Shown here in pieces: positions 1 to 46,445 of a stretch of DNA of 50,427 nucleotides (positions are counted from its first letter, which is position 1; each line of letters opens with the position of its first letter). Where the stretch lies: NCBI GenBank assembly GCA_021780535.1, contig JAJXYN010000004.1, positions 1 through 50,427 of the forward strand. Direction: 5' to 3'. Below the pieces are notes generated by a model that was given only the letters and a program-made list of their open reading frames with translations, ran no database searches and had not been told where the DNA came from. A program made the position numbers and the translations under genes. Origin of the DNA: a bacterium (GTDB taxonomy: Bacteria > Patescibacteriota > Patescibacteriia > JAGPKW01).

Positions 1-3000
1 GGTAATCTTTTATTTGGACAAAATTTTGTTGGGTCATATTCTATAAATGTTATAGTTACTGATGATTATAATCTTGGATTGCAAAGTACTACAAATCCAC
101 ATAATTCATCTGCTTCTTATGATATTGGTTTTGATATTGGTCCTGGCTGTGGTGATAGAATTGTACAAAAAAACTTAGGAGAAACTTGTGAACTTAAGCC
201 AAATGAAAGTGTGAAAAATATTTATATGGATTGGGGTACATATACTAATTCTGTTATTAATACGGATTTTAAACAACCCGATGGCTCTGGCGATTGTGTT
301 GCATATAAATTTATAGAGAATTCTTTTGATTGGAAAGGGAAATTAGATGATATACCTTGTTTAGAAAATCATTATGGTCTTTGTGAGAGAAGATCTTCTT
401 TTGGTTGTGATGGGTGGATAGCTGGTCCTAATGATAATTGTTATTTGATTACTAAAAGTTCTGGAGATTATGATACGGAAAAAAGTGAATGTGAATCTTA
501 CAATGCAGAACTTGTAGTTGTTGATGATGCTAATGAAGAAAAATCTATTAATGCAAATAGTTTGATTGCTGCAAAGGGAGTGTTATGGACTGGTTATAGA
601 AAAGAAAATGGATATTTTTATTCTGTAAGGGGTGGAAGATGGTCTGATGCTTCATCTTTAAATAATTATGATATTTATAGAGATAATATTTATGGTTCTG
701 GGACTGGAGTATCGGCTGCTTCTGCTTATGCTTGTGGTCTCCCTTGGGAAAATGATGCTTGTCGTCAAGTTAAAGGTTATTGTGGTGATGGAGTTTATTC
801 TTCTCTTTTTGAAGAATGTGATAAAACTGATAAAACAAGTTATGGAAAAGGTTATGATATAAATAACCAATACGGGTGTGGTATTGGTGATGGAGTAAAT
901 GATAATAACCCAAACAATAATACATGCAGGCAACAAGAAGGTTGGTGCGGAGATTCTTCTTTTAATCCAACATATGAACATTGTGATCCTACTGTGAGAA
1001 TTACAGCATCAGAATCTTCTTCTGCTACTTTTGGTATTACAAATGGTGCTCATCAATATTCTTGTCAGCCAAAGACAAAGAATAATGAAATGACGTATTT
1101 GGATTATTCTGATTTTGAAGCAAACAAAAATGTTCCAGCTGATGTGATGTGTAGAAAATCTTTTGGTGGATATTGTGGAGATGGCCAAATTCAAATGTTT
1201 TATTCTATTGATAGTAATGGTAATTATTATATTTCTAGTGACGATGTTGGTTCTCAAGATGGCACTAATCAAAAATGGAAGGGTATTGTTTTTGATGTAA
1301 ATTCTAAAAAATACAAATACAATAATGCTGATATGACGTCTGATCAATTGAATAATATTATAGAAGAATGTGATCCTACTAATTATCCATGTGATCCTAA
1401 TAGTAAAGAGGGTTCTTGTCGTTTCCCTAAAAATTCTTCTGAAATTGCTCAATATGGTGGTTGTGGACAGGTTTCTACTTCTTTAGCAAAATCTCCAGTT
1501 GTTTTATCTTGTTTTGTTTACAAGGATCTTTCTAATAATATTATTGATTGTGCTGGTTCATGTACGTTTAATAGTACTACTAAAGTTTGTGATAAAAAAA
1601 ATAATGATAATAATGTTTGTACTATATACTACCAAAAAAAGAATGGTGGTTATGGAATGGTAAATTATACTGGGGAATGTGGTTGCAAGAAGATATATGG
1701 TGGATATTGCGGTGATAGTATCGTTCAAGACCAATTCAATGAAGAGTGCGATTCTAATCAAGTAGATTCAGCTGGTTTTAGTGTTTATGATAGTGGTAAA
1801 CTTACAAAAGGTAATCTTACTACAATATCTCAATACTCTGATGTTAATAAACAATATCTTTGTGGTCAAACTGTCGCTTATTCTGAAAATATAGCAGATT
1901 TGAATAAGAGAGATGCTAGTGGTGCTGTTGTTTCTAATGCTTTTACAGCAAATTATGCTAATGTTAATAATAATGAAATGGCTTGTAATATACTAGGTGG
2001 ATATTGTGGAGATGGTGTTATTCAATCTGATTATGTAACTTTAAAATCTCAATCTGATCAATCTTGGCTTTATGCTAATCAAGGTACATTGGAAGAATGT
2101 GATCCGAAAGGTGTATCTGTTGTTGCTAAGTATTCTTCCCCTAATAATACTTATACTTGTGGTTCTGTAAATACAGCAAGAGCGTGTCGTGATTTAAGCT
2201 ATAATGAACAAGACTCTAATAATAAATATGGTGGCTATTGTGGAGATTCTTTTGTTCAATATAATTTAACAGATCCCGGTGTTCCAAATAATCCTGCTAA
2301 TTATTCTATTTTTAGAAATACTACTGGCGGTAATCCAGAACAATGCGACCCTGTTGGGCATAATACATTACCAAATCAATCTAATCTAAATAATCAATAT
2401 TCTTGCGGACTTACTCCAAACGATAATGCCTGTACTAATATTGGTGGATATTGTGGGGATGGAGTTGTAAATGCTTATAGAAATTTTTCAACCAATGAAC
2501 CAAGTGGTAATGGAGATTGTGTTACTTTGAAAACCGGTATTGGTTGGAATGGGAAATGGGATGATGTTCCTTGTACTGATCCTTATGAATATGTCTGTGA
2601 ACAAGAAAACCCTTCAAAAAATGTTTGTCCTAGTGGTTTTGTTAGATTTGATAATGGTAATTATAATTGTTATAGCATTTCTTCTATTTCCTCTAATTTT
2701 TCTTCTATAAATTGTCCAATTGGAAGCCATTTAGCTGTTATAAACTCTCAAGAAGAGAATGATTTTATTGCATCATTAGCTGATTCTAATTCTATTCTTT
2801 ATATTGGCTTAAATGATATTGATAGAGAGGGCGAATTTGTTTGGTCTGGTAATACTGGGTTTGCTGAAGAATGTGATCCAAATTCTACAGATTATAAATC
2901 TGGAGCTACTTCTAAAATACTTGTTGGAGTTGCCCCTGCTTCTAATGTTAATAAACAATATTTATGTGGTTCTACTGGTGTTTGGACTACTGTTCCAAAT

Positions 3001-6000
3001 GATACTCATAAGTATGATGTAAATGGAAATTATATTTCTTCTTTTGCTTTTGATAATAAAAATCAAGGAAATAATTCTTGTATGACTTTTGGTGGATATT
3101 GTGGTGATGGAGTAATACAATATGATTTTAGTACTACAAAAAACCAATCTGATCAGATTTTCTTTTATGGAAATCCTAATGGTTCATTGGAACAATGTGA
3201 CCCAAACGGCCACTCTGTTATGACAAGAAATTCTTCTGTATCTAATCAATACGGATGTGGTTCTAGTGGTGCTGCTGATGCTTGTCAAAATAAAGATGGA
3301 TATTGTGGTGATGGAGTAAAACAAATAAATGAAGAATGTGATTTTGCTTCCAAAGCGGGTAATGATTATTCCGGTACTAATTTAATTGCAAATGGTAAAT
3401 CTAGTGTTACACAGAATTCTTCTTATACTCAACAATATAGATGTGGTAAACCTCAGAAGTTTGTAACTCTTCCTGGTATAAAGACTAAATATGCTTCTTC
3501 TGGAAGTATAATTGGTACATTTACTGATGCTGATCTTTCTTCTGAAAACAATACATCCTCTTGTGTTACTTTTGGTGGATATTGCGGAGATGGTGTTATC
3601 CAAATTACTGCAGATTCTGAAAAAACTCAATCTGACCAATCTTGGTTTTATTCAAACCATGGAACATTAGAAGAGTGTGATCCTAAAGGACATTCTGTTA
3701 TTGCTCAATATTCTTCTGCTTCTAATTCATATACTTGTGGTTCTGTTAACACTAGCGATGCTTGTACTAATCTTGATTATACTCAGAAAGATTCAAATAA
3801 TAATTATGGTGGATATTGTGGAGATGGATATGTTCAATATTCTTTAACATCACCTGCTCTTGCAAATAGTAATTCTTCAAATAATGCAACTTTTCAAAGT
3901 ACAGTTGGAGGTAACCCTGAAGAATGTGATCCTTTTAATCATAGTGTTTCTGCTTTTTATTCCAGTCCTAATAATACTTATCTTTGTGGAGCTATCAATA
4001 CTGCTAGTGCTTGTCAGGATTTATTATATGCAGATAATAATAGTAGTGGATATTGTGGTGATGGTAAGATTCAATATGATCTAACAAAACCTGCAGCAAG
4101 TCAGGGGGATGCTGCTGAAAAAGGTGTTATAAATATTACTAATAATTCTCCAGAACAATGTGATCCAGTTGGTCATAGTGTTCTAGCTAAAGATTCTTCT
4201 GCTAATAATACATATTATTGTGGATCTGTTGTTGACGAACAAACAAATGGGAAACCTTATTCTTGTAGGGATATTGGTTATGCAACTACAGATGCTGTTA
4301 CTAAACAAGGTGGATATTGTGGTGATGGATTTACACAAAATGGTACAAATGGTACTCAAAACAAAGAAGAATGTGATCCTTCTTCTGTTGATTATTTGAA
4401 TGGAATTTTAATCTCTGGGAGAACAACTTCTAGTGCTTCTAAACAATATTTATGTTCTTCTACTGGTGTATGGTCTAGTAATCCTGCTGATACAACTAAA
4501 TATAAGGCTGATGGTACTAGTGATCCAACTTTTGTATATAATAATGTAAATAATAGTGATAATTCTTGTAGAACTTTTGGTGGATATTGTGGTGACGGTG
4601 TTGTACAAGTTTCTTTTAGTGTTAAGAAAAATCAAACAACTGATCAGCCCTGGTTTTATTCTAATTTAGGAACCTTAGAACAATGCGATCCTAAAGGACA
4701 TTCTGTTGTTACTCAATATTCTTCTGCTTCTAATTCATATACTTGTGGTTCTGTTGGTACTGCCAATTCTTGTTCTAACCTTGATTATACCCAAAAAGAT
4801 TCTAATAATAATTATGGTGGATATTGTGGGGATGGATATGTCCAGTATTCTTTAACAGCTACTCCTTTACAAAATATTGCTGCTAATTATCCTATATTTC
4901 AAACTACTGCAAATGGTGATCCTGAACAGTGTGATCCTTTAAATCATAGTACATCAGCAGCTTATTCTAGCCCAAGTAACACATATGCTTGTGGATCTAG
5001 TGGTACTGTAAATGCTTGTAAAGATTTAACTGCTGTTCAACAAGATTCTTCTTTGAAGTATGGTGGATATTGTGGAGATGGAGTAATCCAATATGATTTA
5101 ACAAAGCCAGCCGCTAACCAAGGAGATATTAATGAAACTTCCCCTATTGTTGTAACTGCTAATAGTCCAGAACAGTGTGATCCTGGTACTGGTAATAGTC
5201 ATATTGTTTTGGCTAAAAATTCATCCCCAGATAATACATATTATTGCGGATCTGTTACTGATGGTGCTGCTTATGCGTGTCGTGATGTCCTTTATGCTAC
5301 GACTAATAATATAACGAAACAGGGTGGATATTGTGGAGATGGTATTATTCAAGATGGAACAAATGGAACACAAAACAAAGAACAATGTGATTATGCTAGT
5401 TATGTTCCTCCTACGCCACAGACATCTTCTATTACAAAAACTTATGTATGTGGAGATAAAGTTACTGTTTATCCGAACGATCCAAATCATGATTTGGCAT
5501 GTAAGCTTGTGGATGCTTCACATGGTGGTGGATATTGTGGAGATGGTTCAGTTCAATTTTGTAAAGGGTCTGATGGTATTATAAAAACTAACCATACAGA
5601 TTGTTGGGATTCTAATAATATTGCTTTAAATGGTGTTACCCCACTTGAACAGTGTGATCCTGTAAATTATAATGTTACACCTGCTGTATCTTCAAAAATA
5701 AATAGATATATTTGTGGTTTGCAAACAGCTGGAGATGCATGTATGGATAAGGGTGGATATTGTGGAGATGGTACTATTAATATGTCATTAAATATTGATG
5801 GTCTAAATCGTAGAATTTCTACAAATGATTATGTCGCGACGAATTATAATTATGATACTTCTGCTACTCTTGAAAAATGTGATCCAGCTTATACACCAAC
5901 AATTACAGAAACAAATAATGTATTTGCTAATGGAGTTAAGCTTCCTAATATTTATATTCATTCAGCTGGACTTGAAGATTCTTCTGGTGTAACTGATCAT

Positions 6001-9000
6001 TCGTTAATTATTAACGGTGTTGCTAAAAATGTTGTTGGCAGAAGTTGGGCTGTCCATGTTTTTGATGCTAATTGGAATTATATAGAATCGCAAGATTACG
6101 ATGTTTATGTTAGTCAACTCGGTTCTTGTGCTAGCGCTGATCCTACTAGTTGTGCTAATGCTATGAATACTTATTTGAATTCTTTAGGAACTGATAAATA
6201 TGTTATATTTTCTACATATGATGAACCTAGGGGTAATATTGGTATTATATGGAATACTTTGAAAAATTTTGGTGCTAATGAAGATACTTTATCTCATTTA
6301 ATAACTGATTTTAGAGGTGCTTATTTGATGGTTGGTAAAAAAGGAATAGGTGCTGATAATAATTTTTTTGAAAGTTATACTCCTCATTATGGTACTGGTG
6401 TTACATTCACAACTAAAGATTTGAATGATAACTTTTTAGCTATTAATAATACATCTCAATCTGGTACAACAATATCTGATGCTATACATTATAATTGTAA
6501 AAATGATTGTACTTTTACCAATACTGCTACTGATTTTTGTGGAGACGGAATTACTCAGTCTGCAAATGGTGAACAGTGTGATCCTAAGAATTATGTTGTT
6601 CCTACAAATACAGCTTCTTCAAGTTCTAATCAATATGGTTGTTCATTGCTTTGTAAAGATACATCAGGATATTGTGGAGATGGTATAGTTGAAACTGCTT
6701 ATGGAGAAGAGTGTGATCCTTTGAATTATGTTGTTCCAAATGCTAAACAATCTGGAACTAATAGTACTTATAATTGTGGTTCTGTTGGTACTGCGAAAGC
6801 TTGTAAAAGATTATATTATTCTGATCTAGATGTTCCAACTGCTAAATATGGTGGATATTGTGGAGATTCTAAGGTTCAATATAATTTAGCAAGTGCTTCT
6901 GGAAGTCAAACGGATTCTACTTGGAAAACTGCTGTTACTATTGATTTAACTCATCCTGAACAATGTGATTATAATGGTTATATAATACCATTGCCTTCAC
7001 AATCTACAGTTAATTATCAATATTCTTGTACGGATGCTTCTACTCCTATTCCTTGTTCTAAAACCGGTGGATATTGTGGAGATTCTATAATTCAATCAGC
7101 TTATGAGGAGTGTGATTATGCTAATTATGTTCAACCTACTCCAGCACAATCTTCTGTATCTAGGATGTATTCTTGTGGAAATACCACTAAAGGTACTTAT
7201 GCTTGTTTTATGCTAGATAAAAATAACGGTGGGGGATATTGTGGAGATAATGTTTTACAAAATTCATTTGGAGAGATTTGTGAAAATACTTCTACTAATT
7301 CTAGTTTATCTGCTTGGTTAAATTTTGAAGGGGATAATAATGATTCTTCTTTAAATGGTAAAAATGGTGTATATACAGGGACTGGTTCTATGGAATATCT
7401 TCAAGGAAAAAATGGCCAGTCAGCAAATTTAAATGGGGATGATACGGTAACTATAAATAATGTTAATGTTAATACTAATGCTGGCGCTAAAAACACAGTA
7501 TCTTTTTGGATGTATTGGGGTGGTGGAAATGGTATGATGCCTATATCTTTTGGTAATAGTTATGATTTGTATCTTGTTAATAATTTTTTTGGATTTAATA
7601 CTGGTTTAGGAGATGATTTTGGAATAGATTTTTCTCCATCTACTTATGCTAATAAATGGGTACATGTTGTTGCTACTGTTTATAATGGTGTTCCAGATGC
7701 AACAAACAATGAATTATATATAAATGGTGTTAAGCAAGTAATCTCTCAAAAACTTGGTGTTAGTAATTCTTATAGAATGATTTCTAATTCTATAATTATT
7801 GGTGGTTGGATAAATGATGGCGGGTATAGATTTAATGGGATGTTAGATGACGTTAGGGTTTATAATAGACAATTAACTCAAACTGAAATTAATAGTATTT
7901 ATAACGCTTCTGGTTTCTCTAACTATTTATATAATGTAAATGATGGTGGTACTATAAGGAATGATTTATCTAATACAACATGTACTGCTAGTTGTGGTAC
8001 TACTGGTGATGGTTGGACTTGTGATACTGGTTATTATTGGAATATTGTTAATTATGGAGTTGGTACGTTTAATGTTTGTCGTGCTGTACCTTCTAATTCT
8101 GTTAGAATAGCTGGCTTGCATGGTGGTAATGATTATAGATGTAATGATGGTTTTGAAAAAGATGGTTCTGGTGGATGTAAGACTTGTGATCCAGGATATT
8201 ATTCTAATGGTGGTGGTTCTTGTTTAGCTTGCACGGCTATTGCTAATAGTAATTGGACTACAAAAGGTACACTTGCTAATAACTGTGGATTTAATTGTAA
8301 TGCAAGTTATCAATATGATGGAATTGCTAGAACTTGTACTTCATGTGCTACTGGAACTTGGACAGCTAATGCAAATCAATCTGCAACATGTTCTGCTTGT
8401 ACTGCGATTACTAATGCTAATGCTTTCACAACAAATGGTACTTCTGCAAATACTTGTGGATTTAATTGTAATGGAGCTTATTATTATAATGGTATTAATA
8501 GAACTTGTACTTCATGTGCTACTGGAACTTGGACAGCTAATGCAAATCAATCTAATTCTTGTTCTTCTTGTACAAATAAAGCTGGTAATGAGATATATAC
8601 ATCAAACGCTACTTCTGCTACGGGTTGTGCTGTTAATGGTTGTGCAGTAGGCCAATATCCTTTAACAAATACTTCTTGTACTTCTTGTACTGCAATTGCT
8701 AACGCTAATGCTTTTACAACAAATGGTACTTCTGCAAATACTTGTGGATTTAATTGTAATGCAAGTTATCAATATGATGGAATTGCTAGAACTTGTACTT
8801 CATGTGCTACTGGAACTTGGACAGCTAATGCAAATCAATCTACAACATGCTCTGCTTGTACAAACAAAGCTACTACTCAAATTTATACTTCTAATGCTAC
8901 TTCTATCACTGGTTGTACGGTAAGTGATTGTCCTATTGGTCAATATCCTTCTTCTAATGTGACTTGTTCTGTTTGTACTGCAATTTCTGGTGCGAATATG

Positions 9001-10869
9001 TTTATTACAAATGGATCTTCTGCTGTAACTTGTGGATTTAATTGTGTTGGCGGTTATTACTATAATGGTACTAATAGAACTTGTACTATTTGTGGTGCTA
9101 ATACTTGGGCACCTAGCGCTAATCAATATACTTCTTGTGCTGCTTGTGCCACTGAAACTTGGTCTTCTGCTGGAGCATCTTCTTGTACAGCTTGTGGTTA
9201 TTCTGGATGGAGTAATACTACATGTAATACTGGAAATACTTGGAATGCAACAAGGATTATAACATCTGGCAATACTACTCAATGTACAGCTCTTTCTACT
9301 ACAAACAATGGAGCTTGCTCATATTGTACTGGTACTCAAAGCCAAAGTCAGGCTTGTTCTATAGCTAATGGTACTGGAACGCAAAGTCAGAGTAGGACTT
9401 GTACAAATAATAACTATGATTCTTGGGGATCTTGGGGAACTTGTACTGTGGTAAGTTGTAATGATAATTATTACAAATCAAGTGCTACGGTTTGTTCTGC
9501 TTGTGCTGCTGAAACATGGTCTTCTGCTGGAGCATCTTCTTGTACGGCTTGCGGTTATTCTGGATGGAGTAATACTACATGTAATACTGGTAATACTTGG
9601 AATGCAACAAGAACTATAACATCTGGTAATACTACTCAATGTAAAACTATTTCTACTATAAATAACGGAGCTTGCTCGTATTGTACTGGTACTCAAAATC
9701 AAAGTCAGGCTTGTTCTATAGCTAATGGTACTGGAACGCAAAGTCAGAGTAGAACTTGTACAAATAATAACTATGATGCTTGGAGTGCTTGGAGTGGTTG
9801 TACTTTAACAAGTTGTAATACTGATTATGTTGCTTCTGGAAATTCTTGCGTACTTAGAACTTGTACTTTCCCGGATGATTATAACGCTGATCACCAAGCT
9901 TGCATAAGTAATAATTTCTATGATGTTTATTATGTGAAGAAAACTACTTCTAATTGTACTGTACCTTATAAATATGATTATAATCCATATAATAGTACTT
10001 ATGGTGCTAATGATATTTTATGGTGTAATAGTGGTAATCTTCCAGCTGGTATAGATTGTGCTTTAGTTGGTGATATAGCTGGTCATGCTTGCTCATATTG
10101 TACTGGTACTCAAAGTCAAAGTCAGGCTTGTACTATAACTAATGGTACTGGTACTCAAAGTCAGAGTAGAACTTGTACTAATAATAACTATGATGCTTGG
10201 AGTGCTTGGAGTACTTGTAGTGTTACAAGTTGTAATTCTGGATATTATGGTTCTGGAACATCTACTTGTAATGCTTGTGGATATAGTGGATGGAGTAATA
10301 TTGATTGTCAAAGTAATTCTACTTGGTATGCTACTAGAACGATAACTGCTGGTAATCCTACGGAATGTAATGCATCTTTAACTAATAGTAATAATGGCTC
10401 TTGTTGGTATTGTGGTAGTGGTTCAGCATCTTATACAACTCCTAATTCTGGAGATTGTAATAGTAGAGGAACTGCTACTTATTCTATGAATTGTAATACA
10501 TCTAATCATACATGGCCTGGTTGGGGATTTTCTTCTTGTTCTTGTAATGCTGATTATTATGGATCTCGTTGTGAAGCGACTTGTGCTTATAATAATTTAT
10601 GGACTCAGTATCAAGTAGATTGCCAAACTAATAATTTGTTTTATAGGTGGTATTATATGGACGCCTCTTCTGGAAGTAATTGTTCGAGACACTATGCCTC
10701 TGGTTATAGTGATGGTTGTACTTATTGTGCTTCACCAGGTGCTGATAATGGTAGTTGTGCTTATAGTTGTAATCCACATAATTGCAATTGTAATTGGAGT
10801 GGTGCATATTGTAGTACTTGTTATGATACTTGTTATTATACTTGTGATACTGCTCATTATTGTAGATAA
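1..10869 (+). CDS. Giant secreted/surface cysteine-rich repeat protein, 5' end outside the window (>3,596 aa). Mosaic of DUF4215/Myxococcus-type Cys-rich repeats, C-type-lectin-like, ILEI-like, LamG, ephrin-receptor-like Cys repeats and WSxWS modules.
   Basis: Frame 1 has no stop from nt 1 to the TAA at 10867-10869, and the track start at 79 is only an internal TTG. About 24 copies of GGYCGDG(x)Q...E(E/Q)CD are present. The first 26 codons (GSYSINVIVTDDYNLG) look like the end of an Ig/cadherin-like repeat. A strong terminator follows. Confidence 0.9.
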   Translation, partial: GNLLFGQNFVGSYSINVIVTDDYNLGLQSTTNPHNSSASYDIGFDIGPGCGDRIVQKNLGETCELKPNESVKNIYMDWGTYTNSVINTDFKQPDGSGDCVAYKFIENSFDWKGKLDDIPCLENHYGLCERRSSFGCDGWIAGPNDNCYLITKSSGDYDTEKSECESYNAELVVVDDANEEKSINANSLIAAKGVLWTGYRKENGYFYSVRGGRWSDASSLNNYDIYRDNIYGSGTGVSAASAYACGLPWENDACRQVKGYCGDGVYSSLFEECDKTDKTSYGKGYDINNQYGCGIGDGVNDNNPNNNTCRQQEGWCGDSSFNPTYEHCDPTVRITASESSSATFGITNGAHQYSCQPKTKNNEMTYLDYSDFEANKNVPADVMCRKSFGGYCGDGQIQMFYSIDSNGNYYISSDDVGSQDGTNQKWKGIVFDVNSKKYKYNNADMTSDQLNNIIEECDPTNYPCDPNSKEGSCRFPKNSSEIAQYGGCGQVSTSLAKSPVVLSCFVYKDLSNNIIDCAGSCTFNSTTKVCDKKNNDNNVCTIYYQKKNGGYGMVNYTGECGCKKIYGGYCGDSIVQDQFNEECDSNQVDSAGFSVYDSGKLTKGNLTTISQYSDVNKQYLCGQTVAYSENIADLNKRDASGAVVSNAFTANYANVNNNEMACNILGGYCGDGVIQSDYVTLKSQSDQSWLYANQGTLEECDPKGVSVVAKYSSPNNTYTCGSVNTARACRDLSYNEQDSNNKYGGYCGDSFVQYNLTDPGVPNNPANYSIFRNTTGGNPEQCDPVGHNTLPNQSNLNNQYSCGLTPNDNACTNIGGYCGDGVVNAYRNFSTNEPSGNGDCVTLKTGIGWNGKWDDVPCTDPYEYVCEQENPSKNVCPSGFVRFDNGNYNCYSISSISSNFSSINCPIGSHLAVINSQEENDFIASLADSNSILYIGLNDIDREGEFVWSGNTGFAEECDPNSTDYKSGATSKILVGVAPASNVNKQYLCGSTGVWTTVPNDTHKYDVNGNYISSFAFDNKNQGNNSCMTFGGYCGDGVIQYDFSTTKNQSDQIFFYGNPNGSLEQCDPNGHSVMTRNSSVSNQYGCGSSGAADACQNKDGYCGDGVKQINEECDFASKAGNDYSGTNLIANGKSSVTQNSSYTQQYRCGKPQKFVTLPGIKTKYASSGSIIGTFTDADLSSENNTSSCVTFGGYCGDGVIQITADSEKTQSDQSWFYSNHGTLEECDPKGHSVIAQYSSASNSYTCGSVNTSDACTNLDYTQKDSNNNYGGYCGDGYVQYSLTSPALANSNSSNNATFQSTVGGNPEECDPFNHSVSAFYSSPNNTYLCGAINTASACQDLLYADNNSSGYCGDGKIQYDLTKPAASQGDAAEKGVINITNNSPEQCDPVGHSVLAKDSSANNTYYCGSVVDEQTNGKPYSCRDIGYATTDAVTKQGGYCGDGFTQNGTNGTQNKEECDPSSVDYLNGILISGRTTSSASKQYLCSSTGVWSSNPADTTKYKADGTSDPTFVYNNVNNSDNSCRTFGGYCGDGVVQVSFSVKKNQTTDQPWFYSNLGTLEQCDPKGHSVVTQYSSASNSYTCGSVGTANSCSNLDYTQKDSNNNYGGYCGDGYVQYSLTATPLQNIAANYPIFQTTANGDPEQCDPLNHSTSAAYSSPSNTYACGSSGTVNACKDLTAVQQDSSLKYGGYCGDGVIQYDLTKPAANQGDINETSPIVVTANSPEQCDPGTGNSHIVLAKNSSPDNTYYCGSVTDGAAYACRDVLYATTNNITKQGGYCGDGIIQDGTNGTQNKEQCDYASYVPPTPQTSSITKTYVCGDKVTVYPNDPNHDLACKLVDASHGGGYCGDGSVQFCKGSDGIIKTNHTDCWDSNNIALNGVTPLEQCDPVNYNVTPAVSSKINRYICGLQTAGDACMDKGGYCGDGTINMSLNIDGLNRRISTNDYVATNYNYDTSATLEKCDPAYTPTITETNNVFANGVKLPNIYIHSAGLEDSSGVTDHSLIINGVAKNVVGRSWAVHVFDANWNYIESQDYDVYVSQLGSCASADPTSCANAMNTYLNSLGTDKYVIFSTYDEPRGNIGIIWNTLKNFGANEDTLSHLITDFRGAYLMVGKKGIGADNNFFESYTPHYGTGVTFTTKDLNDNFLAINNTSQSGTTISDAIHYNCKNDCTFTNTATDFCGDGITQSANGEQCDPKNYVVPTNTASSSSNQYGCSLLCKDTSGYCGDGIVETAYGEECDPLNYVVPNAKQSGTNSTYNCGSVGTAKACKRLYYSDLDVPTAKYGGYCGDSKVQYNLASASGSQTDSTWKTAVTIDLTHPEQCDYNGYIIPLPSQSTVNYQYSCTDASTPIPCSKTGGYCGDSIIQSAYEECDYANYVQPTPAQSSVSRMYSCGNTTKGTYACFMLDKNNGGGYCGDNVLQNSFGEICENTSTNSSLSAWLNFEGDNNDSSLNGKNGVYTGTGSMEYLQGKNGQSANLNGDDTVTINNVNVNTNAGAKNTVSFWMYWGGGNGMMPISFGNSYDLYLVNNFFGFNTGLGDDFGIDFSPSTYANKWVHVVATVYNGVPDATNNELYINGVKQVISQKLGVSNSYRMISNSIIIGGWINDGGYRFNGMLDDVRVYNRQLTQTEINSIYNASGFSNYLYNVNDGGTIRNDLSNTTCTASCGTTGDGWTCDTGYYWNIVNYGVGTFNVCRAVPSNSVRIAGLHGGNDYRCNDGFEKDGSGGCKTCDPGYYSNGGGSCLACTAIANSNWTTKGTLANNCGFNCNASYQYDGIARTCTSCATGTWTANANQSATCSACTAITNANAFTTNGTSANTCGFNCNGAYYYNGINRTCTSCATGTWTANANQSNSCSSCTNKAGNEIYTSNATSATGCAVNGCAVGQYPLTNTSCTSCTAIANANAFTTNGTSANTCGFNCNASYQYDGIARTCTSCATGTWTANANQSTTCSACTNKATTQIYTSNATSITGCTVSDCPIGQYPSSNVTCSVCTAISGANMFITNGSSAVTCGFNCVGGYYYNGTNRTCTICGANTWAPSANQYTSCAACATETWSSAGASSCTACGYSGWSNTTCNTGNTWNATRIITSGNTTQCTALSTTNNGACSYCTGTQSQSQACSIANGTGTQSQSRTCTNNNYDSWGSWGTCTVVSCNDNYYKSSATVCSACAAETWSSAGASSCTACGYSGWSNTTCNTGNTWNATRTITSGNTTQCKTISTINNGACSYCTGTQNQSQACSIANGTGTQSQSRTCTNNNYDAWSAWSGCTLTSCNTDYVASGNSCVLRTCTFPDDYNADHQACISNNFYDVYYVKKTTSNCTVPYKYDYNPYNSTYGANDILWCNSGNLPAGIDCALVGDIAGHACSYCTGTQSQSQACTITNGTGTQSQSRTCTNNNYDAWSAWSTCSVTSCNSGYYGSGTSTCNACGYSGWSNIDCQSNSTWYATRTITAGNPTECNASLTNSNNGSCWYCGSGSASYTTPNSGDCNSRGTATYSMNCNTSNHTWPGWGFSSCSCNADYYGSRCEATCAYNNLWTQYQVDCQTNNLFYRWYYMDASSGSNCSRHYASGYSDGCTYCASPGADNGSCAYSCNPHNCNCNWSGAYCSTCYDTCYYTCDTAHYCR
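217..650 (+). other. C-type-lectin-like domain 1 inside the giant CDS, with the C-terminal half encoded before the N-terminal half
   Basis: ...QPDGSGDCVAYKF..WKGKLDDIPCLENHYGLCE matches the CTLD C-half (CV..W.D..C..f.CE). It is followed by GCDGWIAGPNDNCYLI....CESYNAELVVVDDANEEKSI....VLWTGYRK, which matches the CTLD N-half (C..GW...CY, WIGL-like). Confidence 0.5.
2470..2865 (+). other. C-type-lectin-like domain 2 inside the giant CDS, same permuted order, inserted between the CGDG and EECD halves of one Cys-rich repeat
   Basis: NAYRNFSTNEPSGNGDCVTLKTGIGWNGKWDDVPCTDPYEYVCE is followed by CPSGFVRFDNGNYNCYSI...CPIGSHLAVINSQEENDFIASL...LYIGLNDIDREGEFVWSGNTGF. Confidence 0.55.
5930..6420 (+). other. 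ILEI/FAM3-like (GG-type lectin-like) domain inside the giant CDS
   Basis: This Cys-poor island reads SLIINGVAKNVVGRSWAVHVFDANWNYIESQDYDVY...MNTYLNSLGTDKYVIFSTYDEPRGN...LKNFGANE..LITDFRGAYLMVGKKG. It resembles the ILEI/PANDER pattern as recalled from memory. No HMM was run. Confidence 0.4.
7306..7910 (+). other. LamG / concanavalin-A-like (Laminin_G_3) domain inside the giant CDS
   Basis: LSAWLNFEGDNNDSSLNGKNGVYTG...SANLNGDDTVTI...NTVSFWMYW...WVHVVATVYNG...NELYINGVKQ...IIIGGW...FNGMLDDVRVYNRQLTQTEINSIYN is the classic Laminin_G_3 motif series. Confidence 0.75.
7975..9130 (+). repeat. Tandem ephrin-receptor-like / GCC2_GCC3-type cysteine repeats with near-identical DNA copies
   Basis: CTSCATGTWTANANQSxTCSAC and NAFTTNGTSANTCGFNCN(A/G)xYxY(D/N)GIxRTC each recur 3-4 times. 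About 120 nt at 8281-8400 is almost identical to 8741-8860, and 8401-8470 to 8691-8760. Confidence 0.7.
9130..10260 (+). repeat. Three ~115-aa modules containing G.G.Q.Q.R.C and W(S/G)xW(S/G)xC motifs (thrombospondin-type-1-like, tentative)
   Basis: CAACA(T/A)ETWSSAGASSCTACGYSGWSNTTCNTGNTWNATR.ITSGNTTQC...ACSYCTGTQ.QSQACSIANGTGTQSQSRTCTNNNYD.W..W..C occurs at ~9130-9470 and ~9480-9800 with near-identical DNA. A diverged third copy sits at ~10085-10260. Confidence 0.6.
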
Positions 10870-10873
10870 ATAT

Positions 10874-10906
10874 AAAAAGAACATGTTTCTAACATGTTCT
10901 TTTTTT
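10874..10906 (+). terminator. Rho-independent terminator of the giant gene
   Basis: The stem is AGAACATGT (10878-10886) / ACATGTTCT (10892-10900) with a 5-nt loop. An A-run flanks it on the left and TTTTTT follows at 10901-10906. Confidence 0.8.
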
Positions 10907-10921
10907 GTTATACTTGTTTTT

Positions 10922-11902
10922 ATGAGAAGTTTTTTATTGAATATTTATAATAAAATAGAAAACAATAAATTTAAAATTTTATTTTTAACTTTATTTTTTG
11001 TTTTTATTGTTTTTATGAGAAGTTTTTTAGAAATAATTTTATCATCTTGGTATTATAATGATTTTTTTACTTTGAAAAATATATTTAATAGAGTTGGATT
11101 TTTGTTATTGCATTGGTTGTTTTGGTATTTTTCAGCTTTTTTGATAGTTTTTATTATATTTAAATATTTTTTAAAAGCAGAAATGGATAAAATTGTTTAT
11201 TTATCGATATCTTCTTTGATTATATTATTGCCGATGGCTTATGCTGTAATTTTGAACAATAAAATAGATTTATCTTATTTGGACTTCTCTAATGTAAACA
11301 ATTCTATCAAAAATATTTTAACTCTTTTTTATTTTGATAGTAAAAACTATGTTTTTTTCCCTGAGATGGTTTTTATTTTACTTGGAGGTTTTGTTTTTTC
11401 ATTTTTATATTCTAAAAAAATTATAAAATCTATTATAAATACTCTAATTTCGTATCTTTCTATAGGTTTGTTTATTGGTTTTGTTTATATTTGTTCAGCT
11501 TCTTTTTGTTTGATAAACACATATTCAAATATTCTTGATTCATATTTTGTTTTTTATTGGATATGTTTCTCATTTGTTTTACTTTTTGTTTTACTTTTTA
11601 AGGAAATAATATTATTTTTTAAAAATAATAAATTTTTAAATAAAACAAATTTAATAATATATTTTTTATCTACTTTTTTTGTTTTAATGTCAGTTATTTT
11701 TAAAAGTATTTATTTGATTGATTGGTTTTTAGTTTGTTTTTCTTATTCTATTTTATATTTTATTTTTATCTTTATTATAAAATATATAAAAAATAGTCAA
11801 TATTTTAGATTGATTACATTTTTTATTGTTTATGGTATTTTTATATTTTTATCTTTAGTATTATTTTATTTACGTTTTTATATCTTTAATAATATTTTTT
11901 AG
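10922..11902 (+). CDS. Polytopic integral membrane protein, function unknown
   Basis: The sequence is hydrophobic throughout, with roughly 8 or more predicted helices. The track start at 10694 overlaps the giant CDS, and the ATG at 10883 lies inside the terminator stem. ATGs at 10922 and 11015 are both preceded by the same exact 23-nt repeat TTGTTTTTATGAGAAGTTTTTTA (10914-10936 and 11007-11029), so the start is uncertain. The TAG stop overlaps the stop of the convergent gene. Confidence 0.6.
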   Translation: MRSFLLNIYNKIENNKFKILFLTLFFVFIVFMRSFLEIILSSWYYNDFFTLKNIFNRVGFLLLHWLFWYFSAFLIVFIIFKYFLKAEMDKIVYLSISSLIILLPMAYAVILNNKIDLSYLDFSNVNNSIKNILTLFYFDSKNYVFFPEMVFILLGGFVFSFLYSKKIIKSIINTLISYLSIGLFIGFVYICSASFCLINTYSNILDSYFVFYWICFSFVLLFVLLFKEIILFFKNNKFLNKTNLIIYFLSTFFVLMSVIFKSIYLIDWFLVCFSYSILYFIFIFIIKYIKNSQYFRLITFFIVYGIFIFLSLVLFYLRFYIFNNIF

Positions 11903-12960
11903 TTATTTTTTAATGCTATTAAGTTTATAGAAGTAGTTATTATTGAATTTGTATAGGTTTCCCAAGAATCTTCTTTTGATAATCTAAATTTCCAAAATAC
12001 TTCATTTGAATCCCAAGACCCATCTTTATTTTGATTTTCTAATATTATTTTACTAGCCTTCTCATTATCTACCCCACATGTTTTTAGTGATGCTAGTGCT
12101 AATGCTGTTTCGTAATTATTTCCAAAACCATTACCCCATGATCCATTTATATTTTGTGATTTTTGTATGAAATTTATAGCTTTATTTTTTATTTCATCAA
12201 GCCCTACATCTTTATACTCACATAAAAACTTTAAAAACATATATGTAGAATAGTATTTTGAAGGGTAGAAATAGCTTTTAAATGATCCATCTTCGTTTTG
12301 GCTATTTTTTATTAAATTTTTATTAATTTCAAAATTATTTCTTTGTTTTGTTTCTAGTAATAGATTGTATATATTTGCATTTACTTCTGAGTGAGATTTA
12401 TAATTTTCTTTTGAATCTTGCATCAATTGGTTTTCTCTAAAAGATGAAAAATCTTTTGTATCTTTATTATAGAAAAATTCTATATCATTTAATTTATAAT
12501 CTATTTTTAACTTTTCTAATGTTCTCATAGCAAAAGCTGTATCATCTGAATCGTTCCATTCTTTAATTTTTTCTTTAGTTTCGTAGCCCCACAAAGATTC
12601 TCCCGGAGTGTTTATATTTCTTAATAGTGTATTTATTTCATTTTTATCTAATCTTTCTCCTATTGCTTGTGATATGAAAAATCCGTAAATAATGGACCCC
12701 GTGTATGGATTCATACAGTTTGGACATTTTTTTACATCTCCTTTTGCTATGCTTTTCATAGAAAATGGTTGTTTAGAATCTATTTTATTCTTTAAGTATC
12801 TTGTACCTTTTTCTATAGCTTCTTTATTGCTTGTGTTATTATTCATTGATTTTTTTGTATTTTTTGATCCTTGATTTTGTGTTGATAAAAAAAATAAAAA
12901 TAAAATAGATGCTATTATCATGATGGTTATTACTAATATAATATTTATTTTTTTTGTCAT
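11899..12960 (-). CDS. Membrane-anchored protein with prenyltransferase / squalene-cyclase-type alpha-alpha toroid repeats
   Basis: An N-terminal TM helix (ILVITIMIIASILFLFFL) is followed by repeats of the Q.xDGSW type: SQNEDGSFKSYFY, SQNINGSWGNGFGNNYETALALASL and NQNKDGSWDS. Confidence 0.6.
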   Translation of the reverse strand: MTKKINIILVITIMIIASILFLFFLSTQNQGSKNTKKSMNNNTSNKEAIEKGTRYLKNKIDSKQPFSMKSIAKGDVKKCPNCMNPYTGSIIYGFFISQAIGERLDKNEINTLLRNINTPGESLWGYETKEKIKEWNDSDDTAFAMRTLEKLKIDYKLNDIEFFYNKDTKDFSSFRENQLMQDSKENYKSHSEVNANIYNLLLETKQRNNFEINKNLIKNSQNEDGSFKSYFYPSKYYSTYMFLKFLCEYKDVGLDEIKNKAINFIQKSQNINGSWGNGFGNNYETALALASLKTCGVDNEKASKIILENQNKDGSWDSNEVFWKFRLSKEDSWETYTNSIITTSINLIALKNN

Positions 12961-13024
12961 TTATTTTTTTATTTTATGTTACAATGTTATTAATTATACA
13001 ATAAAAATTCATAATTAAGAATTC

Positions 13025-13888
13025 ATGTTTTTTAAAAAAATATTAGGATTTATAAATTTATACAGACTAGATATTGCTTTTATAACAGTTCTTTTATATT
13101 TGTTCGGATCTTTTTTTGTTATTGGGTTTAAATCTTTCAATGTAATTAATTTTTTGATGTCATTTTTGATTTCTTTTGTTTCTGTTAATTTTATATATTC
13201 TTTAAATTCTTGGTTTGATGCTGATATTGATAAAATAAATAAACCTACTAGACCAATTCCTGCTGGAATTATTACTAAAAAAGAAGCATATATTTATTCA
13301 ATTTGTTTATTACTAGTATCTATTGTTTATCCTATATTTTTTATTAATATTTCTAATTTTATATTATTAGTTTATATTTTTCCGATTATTGGTATTTTAT
13401 ATTCAAATAAAATTTTTAGCTTTAAAAAAAATAAATATTTGGCTTTGTTTGCTATTACTTTTTCTCTTGTTATGGTTTTTGCCATTAGTTTTTTAATTAA
13501 TGGTGGAATTATTAATAATAATTTTATTTTAACGACTATTTCTTTTTGGTTTTTAACTATTGCCATCGTTATTTTTAAAGATTTATCTGATATAGAAGGG
13601 GATAAAAAATACGGATCTGAAAATTGGTTTGTTGTATTATCTAAAAATAAAGTTTTGGCTATTTCGTTTATTTTTATATTATTATCTTTTATATTTTCTT
13701 TTTTTATGGATAATATTTTTATTAAAATTATTACTATTATACAATTATCTTCTATTTTATTTCTACTTTTTATATTTTCCATTTTTAAAATTAATTTTGA
13801 TAAATTTTATAATTCTCTTCTTAAGTTTCTTATTATTAATGGATTTATTTATATTATTATTTATTCCTGTGTTAAATTATTTTTATAA
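13025..13888 (+). CDS. UbiA-family aromatic/isoprenoid prenyltransferase
   Basis: The first Asp-rich motif is NSWFDADIDKINKPTRPIPAG and the second is KDLSDIEGDKKYG. The protein has about 8-9 TM helices and is 287 aa. It is divergent from the toroid-repeat gene across a 64-bp spacer. Confidence 0.8.
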   Translation: MFFKKILGFINLYRLDIAFITVLLYLFGSFFVIGFKSFNVINFLMSFLISFVSVNFIYSLNSWFDADIDKINKPTRPIPAGIITKKEAYIYSICLLLVSIVYPIFFINISNFILLVYIFPIIGILYSNKIFSFKKNKYLALFAITFSLVMVFAISFLINGGIINNNFILTTISFWFLTIAIVIFKDLSDIEGDKKYGSENWFVVLSKNKVLAISFIFILLSFIFSFFMDNIFIKIITIIQLSSILFLLFIFSIFKINFDKFYNSLLKFLIINGFIYIIIYSCVKLFL

Positions 13889-13935
13889 GTGATAAAATAT
13901 ATGTAATGCAATAATTAGTTAATGATTTAATAATT

Positions 13936-14427
13936 ATGAAAAAAATTATCTTTATATTATCTTTGTTTTTATTATCTTTGTTTTTATCTGGGTGTGTTTC
14001 TGTAGATAACGTAAAAAAAAGTAATTCCAATAGTAAAATTAATACAAAAGTAGAGAATAATGAATTGCCAATAAAGGATCCTGTCATTATAGAAAAATGT
14101 CTTACATCTGATTGCTTTTTAGATAAGTTTGAAAAATGCTCTCCTGTCCAATATTTTTGGCATGAAAATAAAACAAAAAAAATAAGTTTTTTAGTTGTTT
14201 TTGGTGAAGTTAATGGAAAATGTAATGTAATGCTTAATAAAGATGACTTGACTAATAATTTACAGTGTTTTCTTTCATCTGATTATTTAACTAAAAAAAC
14301 TTTTGATCAATTAGTTAATAAGGATTTTTCTAAAAAATCTGAAATAGATACTATATGTTCTGTTGTTAATGTTATTGAAAATAATAAGGGTAATGATGCT
14401 AAAGTAGATTTTAAAAAAATAAAATAG
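13936..14427 (+). CDS. Cys-rich lipoprotein, function unknown
   Basis: The signal peptide carries a lipobox (LFLSGC). The mature part contains six further Cys residues. Confidence 0.65.
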   Translation: MKKIIFILSLFLLSLFLSGCVSVDNVKKSNSNSKINTKVENNELPIKDPVIIEKCLTSDCFLDKFEKCSPVQYFWHENKTKKISFLVVFGEVNGKCNVMLNKDDLTNNLQCFLSSDYLTKKTFDQLVNKDFSKKSEIDTICSVVNVIENNKGNDAKVDFKKIK

Positions 14428-14525: not shown

Positions 14526-16751
14526 ATGGCTCGTAAAAAAAATACGAAAAAACAAAGAGATATTGATGAAATTATAGAAGAAAAATTGCCTTCAGGTGGA
14601 ATAGATGAAGCTAAAACTAAAAATATAGTTTTAATATTGTTATTACTTTTTATTGTTATTTCGTTTCTAAGTTTATTTAATATCGCTGGCCAATTTGGTA
14701 TTGTTTTTGATAAAATTTTAACTTTTATTTTTGGTTTTGGTAAATGGTTTTTCCCAATTATTTTGACTTTTTTATTCGTATTTTATCTTACAAGTAAATC
14801 TATCCATAAGATTGTTGCTTTTGGTGCATTGCTTGTTTTCGTGTCTTTTTTATCATTTTTTGAATTATTTCATTTATTTGAAACTCTTAATTACGGTGGA
14901 ATTATAGGTAAATATTTTTTATTTCCATTTATTAAATTAACCGGGCCTATTGCTTCTTTTTTTATAATGTTTGCATTGTTTCTTATAGGTTCTATTTTTA
15001 TTACAGATATTCATGTTAATGAATTATTGCTTAAAGTATATACGTGGATTAGTTCTTTATTTAATAAAAATAAAGAGAATAATTCTCTTAATGAATTATC
15101 TAATGGCACTATTGAATTAGAACAAGGTGTGGATCCTAAAAAAGTTTTTGAAAAAATAGCAAATCCATTAAATCCTATTACTCCTTCGTATAAAATTGAA
15201 GATTCTAATGTTGTTGTAAATAATGATAAAAAATCAAATGCTCCTTCTGGTGGAGATATAAGCACTTCTTCTGCTATGAAAAAACTTCATGTTCCAAAAA
15301 GAGAGTTGTATTTACCTATGGATTTATTAGAGGATAGAGTTAGTACTGCTAATGCTGGGGATGTTAATACTAACACTTTGATAATCCAAAGAACTTTGGC
15401 TAATTTTGGAATTAATATTACAATGGATTCTGTTAAAGTTGGACCGTCTGTGGCTCAATATGCTTTTAAACCACAAGAAGGTGTTAAGCTTTCTAGAATT
15501 TCTGCTTTACAAAATGATCTTGCTTTAGCACTTGCTGCTAATTCTTTGCGTATGGAAGCTCCTATCCCTGGTAAATCTCTTGTTGGTATTGAGGTTCCAA
15601 ATAGGGTTGGGGCTATTGTTTCTATGAAAGAAATGATTGCTAGTGAAGAATTTAAAAATAGAAAATCAAATCTTAGTTTACTTTTGGGTAAAGATGTTTC
15701 TGGGAAAACATATATAGCTGATCTTGCTAAAATGCCACATTTACTTATTGCTGGAGCTACTGGTACTGGTAAATCTGTTTGTATTCATGGGGTTATAGCA
15801 TCTCTTATGTTTCAAAGTTCGCCAGATGATTTAAAATTTATTATGATAGATCCGAAGAGGGTTGAAATGACTTTGTATAATGGGATTCCTTATCTTTTAA
15901 CACCTCCAGTTACTGATCCTAAAAAAATAGTGAATGCCTTGAAATGGGCTGTTGCTGAAATGGATAGAAGATATCAAATTTTAGCTGAAGCTAAAAAAAT
16001 TAATTTAGTTTCTTATAATGAATCTGTTGCGGAAGATCAAAAGATGCCTTATATTGTTATTGTTATTGATGAATTAGCTGATTTAATGATGCTTTCTAGA
16101 CAAGAGGTTGAGCCTTGTATTATTAGAATAGCTCAACTTGCTCGTGCTGTTGGTATTCATTTGATATTAGCTACTCAGAGGCCATCAGTGAATGTTATTA
16201 CCGGTCTTATAAAAGCTAATGTTCCTACTCGTATTGCATTTTCTGTTGCTTCTTCTATAGATTCTAGAACTGTTCTTGATGAATCTGGTGCTGAAAGATT
16301 AATCGGTAAAGGTGATATGTTATATTCAGCTTCTGATACCCCAAAACCTGTTAGATTGCAGGGTGCTTATGTTTCTGACGATGAAATTAGAAAATTAGTG
16401 TTACATTTAAAAACTTTAGATTATAATGTTGATTATGATGATTCTATTGTTGAAAAGAAATCTTTGATAACAAATGGTGGTGTAACCGCGAGTGGCTTTA
16501 ATGCTGATGATGATCTTTTTGAAGAAGCTGTTGCTGAGATTTCTAAATCTAGAAAAGCATCTACATCATTATTGCAGAGAAAATTTAGTATTGGTTATGC
16601 AAGAGCTGCTAGACTTATGGATTTACTTGAAGAGGCTGGAATGATTGGTCCTTCTAATGGTGCTAAGGCTAGAGAAGTTTATCTTACTGATAGTGATGAA
16701 TCTGATGATGAATCTTCTTCTGGAGAAAATCAAAATAACCAACTTATTTAA
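14526..16751 (+). CDS. ftsK: DNA translocase FtsK/SpoIIIE
   Basis: N-terminal TM helices are present. The Walker A motif is LIAGATGTGKSV and the Walker B motif is VIVIDELADL. The protein also has RPSVNVITGLIKAN and a C-terminal gamma winged-helix region (LLQRKFSIGYARAARLMDLLEEAGMIGP). Confidence 0.95.
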   Translation: MARKKNTKKQRDIDEIIEEKLPSGGIDEAKTKNIVLILLLLFIVISFLSLFNIAGQFGIVFDKILTFIFGFGKWFFPIILTFLFVFYLTSKSIHKIVAFGALLVFVSFLSFFELFHLFETLNYGGIIGKYFLFPFIKLTGPIASFFIMFALFLIGSIFITDIHVNELLLKVYTWISSLFNKNKENNSLNELSNGTIELEQGVDPKKVFEKIANPLNPITPSYKIEDSNVVVNNDKKSNAPSGGDISTSSAMKKLHVPKRELYLPMDLLEDRVSTANAGDVNTNTLIIQRTLANFGINITMDSVKVGPSVAQYAFKPQEGVKLSRISALQNDLALALAANSLRMEAPIPGKSLVGIEVPNRVGAIVSMKEMIASEEFKNRKSNLSLLLGKDVSGKTYIADLAKMPHLLIAGATGTGKSVCIHGVIASLMFQSSPDDLKFIMIDPKRVEMTLYNGIPYLLTPPVTDPKKIVNALKWAVAEMDRRYQILAEAKKINLVSYNESVAEDQKMPYIVIVIDELADLMMLSRQEVEPCIIRIAQLARAVGIHLILATQRPSVNVITGLIKANVPTRIAFSVASSIDSRTVLDESGAERLIGKGDMLYSASDTPKPVRLQGAYVSDDEIRKLVLHLKTLDYNVDYDDSIVEKKSLITNGGVTASGFNADDDLFEEAVAEISKSRKASTSLLQRKFSIGYARAARLMDLLEEAGMIGPSNGAKAREVYLTDSDESDDESSSGENQNNQLI

Positions 16752-16794
16752 TAAAACATTTTTTTGTAAAATCGTATTAATAATTGATAATATT

Positions 16795-17187
16795 ATGAAA
16801 AGGCTAGCTAAATTTATTTTCTTATTTATTTTCTTGTTTGTCCTATTTTCAAACAATGTATCAAATGCAGCTCCTATTAGTGATTATGTTAACCCTATAG
16901 GTAGTAATATAGATGTAAGTTTTGGAACAACTGATGTTGTTGCACAAAATGTTTTTGGTTCTATTGCTTATAGTCTTATATCAAAAGTAATGGGGATAAT
17001 AGGTATTCTTGTTTTGTGCATGTTTGTGTGGGCTGGTTTGCAATATATTATGGCCAGAGGTGATTCCTCAAAAGTAAAAAAGGCAAATGAAGTTATGAAA
17101 TGGTCTGTTATAGGTCTTACTATAGTTTTTACTTCTTATGTTATTATAAATTTTATATTTACTATTATAGGCAATCTTAGACAATAA
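16795..17187 (+). CDS. Small TrbC/VirB2-like (T4SS-type) pilin family membrane protein
   Basis: The start was moved to the ATG at 16795 (MKRLAKFIFLF...), because the track start overlaps ftsK. A signal peptide ending NVSNA is followed by two TM helices flanking ARGDSSKVKKANE. This is typical of the pilin-like family seen in CPR genomes, recalled from memory. Confidence 0.55.
   Translation: MKRLAKFIFLFIFLFVLFSNNVSNAAPISDYVNPIGSNIDVSFGTTDVVAQNVFGSIAYSLISKVMGIIGILVLCMFVWAGLQYIMARGDSSKVKKANEVMKWSVIGLTIVFTSYVIINFIFTIIGNLRQ

Positions 17188-44962: not shown

Positions 44963-46445
<1,483 letters not shown>

Follow-up and report, generated by a model that had tools for sequence, protein, structure and literature searches.

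Contig JAJXYN010000004.1 of assembly GCA_021780535.1, analysed from position 1 to 50,427 on the forward strand (50,427 nt in all, hereafter the window), opens in the middle of one very long, cysteine-rich open reading frame (ORF), and the question it raises is what such a giant protein does in a bacterium with a reduced genome. The window is bacterial, with about 28% GC, a 16S gene and housekeeping genes, and its sequence places the organism in the Patescibacteria (Candidate Phyla Radiation, CPR), which makes the minimal-looking genome of the original prediction a fair description. Its RF2 is 80% identical to a 'Patescibacteria group bacterium' protein and about 51% identical to proteins of Magasanikbacteria and Parcubacteria. 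In our reading the product of the giant gene is probably an adhesin or recognition protein of modular build, exported and stabilised by disulfides, and its distinguishing trait is a four-cysteine repeat that carries whole folded domains in its loops, among them two C-type-lectin-like domains (CTLDs) whose parts stand in a circularly permuted order. The parts of the gene and of its immediate 3' flank are as follows (window positions, with positions in the product as aa, and TM for transmembrane).

1..10869, + strand: giant ORF, 3,622 codons plus a TAA stop, 5'-truncated at the window edge
136..768 (aa 46-256), + strand: repeat unit 1, which holds CTLD1 between its E-x-C-E and Y-x-C-G
238..648 (aa ~80-216), + strand: CTLD1, circularly permuted; Lectin_C E=4e-6, 28.5 bits in native order
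769..7284 (aa 257-2428), + strand: array of 23 further 4-Cys units, each GGYCGDG-x-Q...E(E/Q)CD...Y-x-CG...AC
2449..2871 (aa ~817-957), + strand: CTLD2, circularly permuted; Lectin_C E=6e-14, about 54 bits; between CGDG and EECD of unit 8
6049..6345 (aa 2017-2115), + strand: ILEI/FAM3-like domain set into unit 20, between EKCD and Y-N-C; PF15711 31.3 bits (cut-off 27)
6526..7284 (aa 2176-2428), + strand: short, near-canonical units 21-25; TIGR02232 / PF13948 (DUF4215)
7432..7893 (aa 2478-2631), + strand: Laminin_G_3 / concanavalin-A-like lectin domain (LamG); PF13385 67 bits, model 2-151 of 151
7960..9132 (aa 2654-3044), + strand: CxxC-rich TNFR/ephrin-receptor-like repeats with a 96-aa composite period; sub-threshold matches
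9133..9846 (aa 3045-3282), + strand: two 119-aa modules, each with an X (YSGWS...ATRxIT) and a Y (GTGTQSQSRTC...WSAWS...SCN) sub-module
9847..10092 (aa 3283-3364), + strand: conserved Cys-containing domain, CVLRTC...GHAC; no Pfam match
10093..10866 (aa 3365-3576; tail aa 3577-3622), + strand: further Y/X sub-modules and a Cys-dense tail, without TM segment or sorting motif
10874-10904, + strand: hairpin resembling a terminator, with a stem of 14 bp and a T-run, 5 nt past the giant-ORF stop; 0.0 expected in shuffles

The backbone of the protein is the repeat. The original prediction had counted about 24 GGYCGDG...E(E/Q)CD units, and this is borne out by 25 CGD[GSNR] and 24 [EQ]xC[DE] motifs; the QSDQxWFY and GTLE(E/Q)CDPKG motifs that it quoted are also present. 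An alignment of 19 units, taken from the window and from a relative, P0001, leaves nine positions invariant (C-G-D / E-x-C-D / Y-x-C / C). Four higher-order supermodules had been placed near 1850, 2950, 3430 and 4440, and their KQYLCG or QQYRCG markers are indeed found at nt 1852, 2956, 3430 and 4444; the KQYLCG segments are expansions of the third loop of the repeat unit. The short units (aa 2170-2450) pass the models of both TIGR02232 (36.1 bits, cut-off 20.8) and PF13948 (29.7 bits, cut-off 27), and the long units, scanned as the piece aa 1030-1530, match neither. When the profile of the long units was compared with that of the short ones, however, hhalign returned a probability of 99.2% (E=6e-20), the long units differing by a 22-residue insertion in loop 1, between CGDG and ECD. 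This points to homology of the long units with the short TIGR02232/DUF4215 units, most units of the protein being a divergent long variant, and the earlier assignment to the Myxococcus-type Cys-rich repeat holds because the short units exceed the cut-offs and the long units align to them. With the proteins of the TIGR02232 / PF13948 'Myxococcus cysteine-rich repeat' family the giant protein shares the core CG(D/N)G...E-x-C-D...C...C with its four cysteines; it differs from them in the 20-25-residue loop-1 insertion of most units, in the replacement of the canonical DDGN...DGC element by DP...Y-x-CG, and in the nesting of entire folded domains within loops. The long variant is rare: among 1.84 billion representative proteins its unit profile finds just 21 at E<=1e-3, and four at the stricter E<=1e-30.

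The original prediction had also recognised C-type-lectin-like, ILEI-like and LamG domains, and in piecewise scans two Lectin_C domains, ILEI and Laminin_G_3 all pass their Pfam thresholds (PF00059, Lectin_C, has a gathering cut-off of 22.6 bits, and both CTLDs lie above it). The order of the parts within the two CTLDs is not the canonical one. In CTLD1 the canonical C-terminal third, with its QPD...LDD motifs, comes first (aa 80-131) and the N-terminal two-thirds follow (aa 132-216); in CTLD2 the C-terminal third (EPS...WDD) occupies aa 817-870 and the N-terminal two-thirds aa 871-957. A phmmer search of the PDB splits CTLD2 in the same way, aa 817-870 matching lithostathine residues 90-144 (and also the C-terminal third of MBP-C) and aa 871-957 matching Mincle residues 14-100. 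When the domains were un-permuted in silico, the two Lectin_C stretches of CTLD2, which together had scored 54.1 bits, became a single one of 69.4 bits that runs to the end of the model, and the score of CTLD1 rose from 28.5 to 37.6 bits, in one stretch over model positions 6-107. Given the split PDB matches and the rise in score on re-ordering, both CTLDs are circularly permuted members of the C-type lectin fold family. The permutation opens the fold between the W-x-W-S-D-G segment and the Y-x-N-W..EPN loop, and a linker of 6-8 residues bridges the original termini. QPD or EPS/EPN sugar-site motifs are retained in several relatives. A literature search combining circular permutation with C-type lectin gave no title or abstract reporting a permuted CTLD. 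No match to a reverse transcriptase was found in any window ORF of at least 100 aa, hence there is no sign of a diversity-generating retroelement near the CTLDs; the window holds housekeeping genes.

How do these domains sit in the array? They lie within it, as had been claimed, although not as simple interruptions, since each is nested inside a loop of a repeat unit: CTLD1 and the ILEI-like domain between E-x-C-D and Y-x-C, CTLD2 between CGDG and EECD, and LamG behind the E-I-C-E element of unit 25. Insertions are tolerated in each of the three inter-cysteine loops of the unit. The ILEI call is borderline, with 31.3 bits when scanned as a piece and 26.4 bits in the whole-protein scan, and the region around it (6010-6408) has tblastn matches of 31-34% in Klebsiella and Acinetobacter phages, one of the matched Klebsiella phage genes being annotated as a tail fiber protein. 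The LamG domain is 60% identical to P0001, and its 7501-7890 portion is 41% identical to Brevibacillus phage proteins. The 'eukaryote-style' label given to these modules therefore stands as a resemblance and not as an origin, given the phage homologues of the ILEI-like and LamG domains and a native codon usage: the G+C content of third codon positions is 11% in the giant gene and 16% in the neighbouring genes, with the same AT-rich codons favoured. A recent transfer from a eukaryote is unlikely on these grounds.

Beyond LamG the protein changes character. The ephrin-receptor-like repeats of the original prediction fall below threshold in the window itself, where Ephrin_rec_like (PF07699) scores 17.7 bits against a cut-off of 23.1 and TNFR_ELAPOR1_6th 31 bits against 33.2, yet they are clearly present in the paralogue P0001, which passes PF07699 (45.3 bits) and PF00020 TNFR_c6 (40.5 bits). 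Compared with CxxC-rich ephrin-receptor-like / TNFR-type proteins (PF07699, PF00020, ELAPOR1), P0001 is thus a member by score, whereas the window repeats come near the threshold without attaining the gathering scores and have their own composite period. The WSxWS-type motif does occur three times (aa 3142, 3261 and 3400), but it is a motif only, because TSP_1 (PF00090) scores 7.9 bits (E=5), and the TSP1 identity of these modules was rejected. Comparison of the window protein with P0001 puts the domain at aa 3283-3364 that follows among their two best-conserved stretches.

Whether the protein is exported has to be judged from its relatives, which were drawn from ENA, JGI and GTDB contigs (P0001 and the loci L001, L004-L008 and L015-L017). 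The family is very rare, with about a dozen relatives. A first scan of genome contigs found none, and a word-indexed whole-protein homology search returned only P0001 even though closer relatives exist, P0002 and gene A of L001, which are about 51% identical over 1,400 residues, so that a negative from this search does not mean absence. No paper returned by our literature searches describes the family. Residue 2 of the window protein aligns to residue 507 of P0002 (51% identity over about 1,400 columns), from which about 510 N-terminal residues would be missing and the full protein would measure about 4,100 aa. All full-length relatives start with a hydrophobic segment that, judged by eye, resembles a signal peptide (for example with HSA|T or IYA|A as its c-region), and a conserved Cys-containing N-terminal domain of about 150 aa follows it. 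Cysteine makes up 6.1% of the residues of the giant protein against 0.97% over 29 neighbouring ORFs. From the N-termini of the relatives and this high cysteine content, an extracellular location appears well founded. The C-terminal TM segment and sorting motif that had been reported as absent are so: the maximum of a 19-residue Kyte-Doolittle window is 1.09, no TM-like segment occurs anywhere in the giant protein, and no LPxTG is found.

Taken together, these observations suggest the following arrangement. A Sec-type signal peptide and the conserved N-terminal domain, both expected just upstream of the window, would direct export; about 25 TIGR02232/DUF4215-related 4-Cys units would form an extended stalk; and the loops of this stalk would display two permuted CTLDs (one with QPD, one with EPS), an ILEI/phage-tail-fibre-like domain and a LamG lectin-fold domain, with TNFR/ephrin-receptor-like CxxC repeats and WSxWS-containing Cys modules at the far end. 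The displayed domains most likely bind surface glycans of the host or partner cell that a reduced-genome bacterium needs, a suggestion based on the QPD/EPS motifs, the LamG fold and the homology of the ILEI-like domain to phage proteins. What the sequences show is the ORF, its repeats, the identity, permutation and nesting of the domains, the taxonomy, the synteny and the divergence at the locus; what we infer is export, the shape of a disulfide-stiffened stalk, the binding of sugars and a part in attachment. By analogy, attachment to or recognition of a partner cell would fit what has been proposed for the giant surface proteins of the CPR predator Vampirococcus, which measure 1,392-4,163 aa and for which a part in attaching to the host has been inferred (PMC8080830).

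Several points weigh against this reading. The Ca2+/sugar ligands of the CTLDs are only partly canonical, with EPS in place of EPN and WDD or LDD in place of WND, and the Glu that precedes the DC-V element is missing. Structure prediction was too poor for use both for the CTLD2 unit (pLDDT, the predicted local distance difference test, 37.8) and for a repeat unit (pLDDT 62), and Foldseek against the PDB gave nothing usable. The window protein shows no anchor, as a TM segment, LPxTG and an SLH domain were all looked for and not found. The N-terminus lies outside the window, and it was supplied neither by searching for a protein identical to the 3,622-aa product, nor by a homology search, nor by the contigs of the same organism, which end inside the gene. 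Finally, the full-length relatives measure only about 1,150-2,370 aa, and the unusual length seen here could come from an assembly join.

The first alternative to be weighed, which we consider unlikely although it survives better than the others, is that the protein is a structural component of the envelope or matrix (a coat, a fibre or part of a biofilm) or serves to capture environmental polysaccharide. A giant, repetitive, Cys-rich and exported architecture would fit a structural fibre equally well, the lectin-fold domains could have wall glycans of the producing cell, or free polysaccharide, as their ligands, and neither an anchor nor a partner has been identified. The comparison with a syntenic genome, GCA_964532735.1, nevertheless argues for recognition. 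The gene order there is a Big_5 giant, FtsA, FtsZ, a family gene (2,327 aa), FtsK, a T4SS-pilin-like protein, HtrA, RF2, ComEC, an S8 peptidase and an epimerase, and from FtsK onward it matches the window. Eleven flanking proteins are 51-88% identical between the two, nine of them at 66-88%, whereas the two family genes reach only 24-28% identity over their alignable parts and differ in their C-terminal modules. A syntenic gene that is far more divergent than its neighbours, with C-terminal modules swapped, would be less surprising for a protein of recognition than for a structural component. The display of several different binding-type domains and the matches of the ILEI-like domain to phage genes, one with a tail fiber annotation, also speak against the structural reading. 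The place of the gene is kept: in the window it lies upstream of ftsK, and in relatives downstream of ftsA-ftsZ, with a family gene directly upstream of FtsK in L017 (towards its C-terminus this gene has an X-type module like those of the window) and FtsZ directly upstream of a family gene in L008. This location near ftsK, occupied by strongly differing genes in related genomes, would fit a role in partner specificity.

Is the gene itself what it appears to be? The ORF was predicted to exceed 3,596 aa and to be open at nt 1, and frame 1 is in fact stop-free from nt 1 over 3,622 codons up to the TAA at 10867-10869, a run with a chance of about 1e-126 under the local base composition. An alternative genetic code was rejected, as TGA terminates two of the 29 neighbouring ORFs and translation table 11 yields housekeeping proteins of full length. 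Three further assemblies of the same organism reproduce nt 8471-10869 with 0-1 mismatch within the giant gene, and the support for nt 1-8470 comes from the window assembly alone. We conclude that the giant gene is a real and unusual gene. That the 10.8-kb ORF could be an assembly artefact, an in-frame join or collapse of at least two tandem paralogues of about 1,150-2,370 aa across similar repeat units, seems improbable to us. The idea draws on the relatives, which frequently stand in tandem pairs, each gene with its own N-terminus: window aa 2-1358 are colinear with A-type genes (P0002, L005) and the C-terminal part is like the B-type P0001, so that the window ORF resembles the A-type N-part followed by the B-type C-part of such a pair, and the three other assemblies all end within the gene. 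Their contig ends, however, at window nt 8575, 8471 and 10161, all fall within the C-terminal DNA repeats (8284-8840 and 9135-10391), which include the longest exact repeat of the gene (99 nt, at 8284 and 8743) and where the window agrees with them. In nt 1-8200 the sole exact repeat of at least 28 nt measures 44 nt, which is not enough to confuse a large-k assembly. Moreover Y-type units follow W-type ones at three separate places, including the A-colinear part, which makes the unit order internally consistent; the region holds elements of neither the A- nor the B-type relative (such as the ILEI-like domain and a second supermodule); and base composition and codon use are uniform along the gene. 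Since three short-read assemblies end inside the C-terminal repeats, such assemblies probably break systematically within genes of this family, which would then be under-counted in metagenome protein sets.

The conserved N-terminal domain of the family bears on a third alternative. The sole PDB match of its profile is PulG/GspG, over helix alpha-1 including DL..L..A...Y..N..YP..E.G, and a pilin or pseudopilin reading was unsupported, with no G|F-x-x-x-E motif in six relatives. In small Patescibacteria homologues the domain is internal, following another domain, and for this reason we read it as a soluble domain and not as a pilin anchor. It is therefore very improbable that the giant protein is a pilus-associated tip adhesin whose N-terminal domain derives from a pseudopilin and is presented on type IV or type II secretion system-like pili, a notion to which the PulG/GspG match and the type IV pili inferred in host attachment of the CPR bacterium Vampirococcus (PMC8080830) lend some appeal, since that match is not significant (E=1.9), the G|F(T)LIE prepilin cleavage motif and any Pfam pilin hit are missing, the internal position speaks against an anchor, the hydrophobic stretch at the N-terminus looks like a Sec signal peptide, and no pilus genes adjoin the giant gene.

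With the modular adhesin or recognition protein retained as the preferred reading, it can be set beside known systems. Animal C-type lectin receptors (Mincle, DC-SIGN, MBP, lithostathine) give the best PDB sequence matches to the CTLDs, with E down to 4e-8, and their QPD or EPS and WND-like motifs are found here at the expected places; the differences are the permuted domain order, the seat of the domain in the loop of another repeat and the partial retention of the Ca2+ ligands. RTX adhesins such as MpIBP consist of a long repetitive extender with lectin-like cargo modules near the far end, their Ig-like repeats being made rigid by Ca2+, their secretion being of type I and their N-terminus forming a plug in the outer membrane. 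The logic of an extender with distal lectin-like cargo is alike, whereas here the repeats are disulfide-rich, export would be of the Sec type, and the cargo sits both in repeat loops and at the end. As regards Vampirococcus lugosii, the giant surface proteins also reach several thousand residues in a reduced-genome, partner-dependent bacterium, and recognition or attachment was likewise inferred (PMC8080830). The WD40, TPR and PKD domains, those named for them in the passage compared, were not found here, and a membrane localisation was inferred there, whereas the giant protein of the window combines lectin domains with a scaffold of Cys repeats and yielded no anchor. In themselves, neither giant adhesin-like proteins of CPR bacteria nor repeats of the TIGR02232 type are new; what is new is the long-unit repeat variant, the scaffold with domains grafted into all three of its loops and the circularly permuted CTLDs. 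It is conceivable, and we put it forward tentatively, that a lineage of Patescibacteria uses the disulfide-bonded 4-Cys repeat as a general display scaffold for loop-grafted binding domains, including permuted CTLDs, with cargo exchanged between close relatives.

If that last reading is correct, the protein would be a bacterial counterpart of the modular adhesion receptors of animals and a candidate determinant of the partner cells to which an episymbiont can attach. How ultra-small Patescibacteria recognise and hold their partners is largely unknown beyond a few cultured Saccharibacteria, and the giant protein supplies candidate binding modules that can be expressed separately, namely the two CTLDs (QPD and EPS), the ILEI-like domain with its phage homologues, and LamG. 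The sharp difference of the family gene at this locus between related genomes makes partner specificity testable. Permuted CTLDs nested in loops would also be of interest for protein evolution and engineering.

Two further stretches downstream of the giant gene were compared with the syntenic relative.

10883-14427: four extra genes that separate the giant gene from ftsK and are missing from this position in the syntenic relative
16645-17187: small T4SS_pilin (PF18895) protein between ftsK and htrA, kept in the syntenic relative

One of the four extra genes encodes a 339-aa polytopic membrane protein without a family match, which adjoins the giant gene in all assemblies of the organism; another is a minus-strand SQHop_cyclase_C/prenyltransferase-like gene, another a UbiA prenyltransferase, and the remaining one encodes a 163-aa protein with weak, sub-threshold lipoprotein-type matches. 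A T4SS_pilin (PF18895) domain is also seen at the N-terminus of P0004, a distant repeat-bearing giant. In three of the other loci (L001 1-3875, L004 2643-9854 and L015 2678-9889) a 2,403-aa ORF with Rpb2_* and Rpb1_* domains, a fused rpoB-rpoC, lies directly upstream of the family gene. The syntenic assembly GCA_964532735.1 (CAZHKK01; L015, L016 and L018) is titled 'uncultured Gammaproteobacteria bacterium', a label that is probably wrong, as the assembly has gene order in common with the Patescibacteria window and a protein identity of 62-88% to it. In the window a complete 16S rRNA gene at 44963-46444 is followed by protein-coding ORFs; the rRNA genes appear to be unlinked, because no 23S occurs in the remaining 4 kb. 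Nearly all plausible window genes are on the + strand, the clear exception being 11899-12960, and all but one of 25 intervals of 2 kb have a positive GC skew, which fits a single replichore arm.

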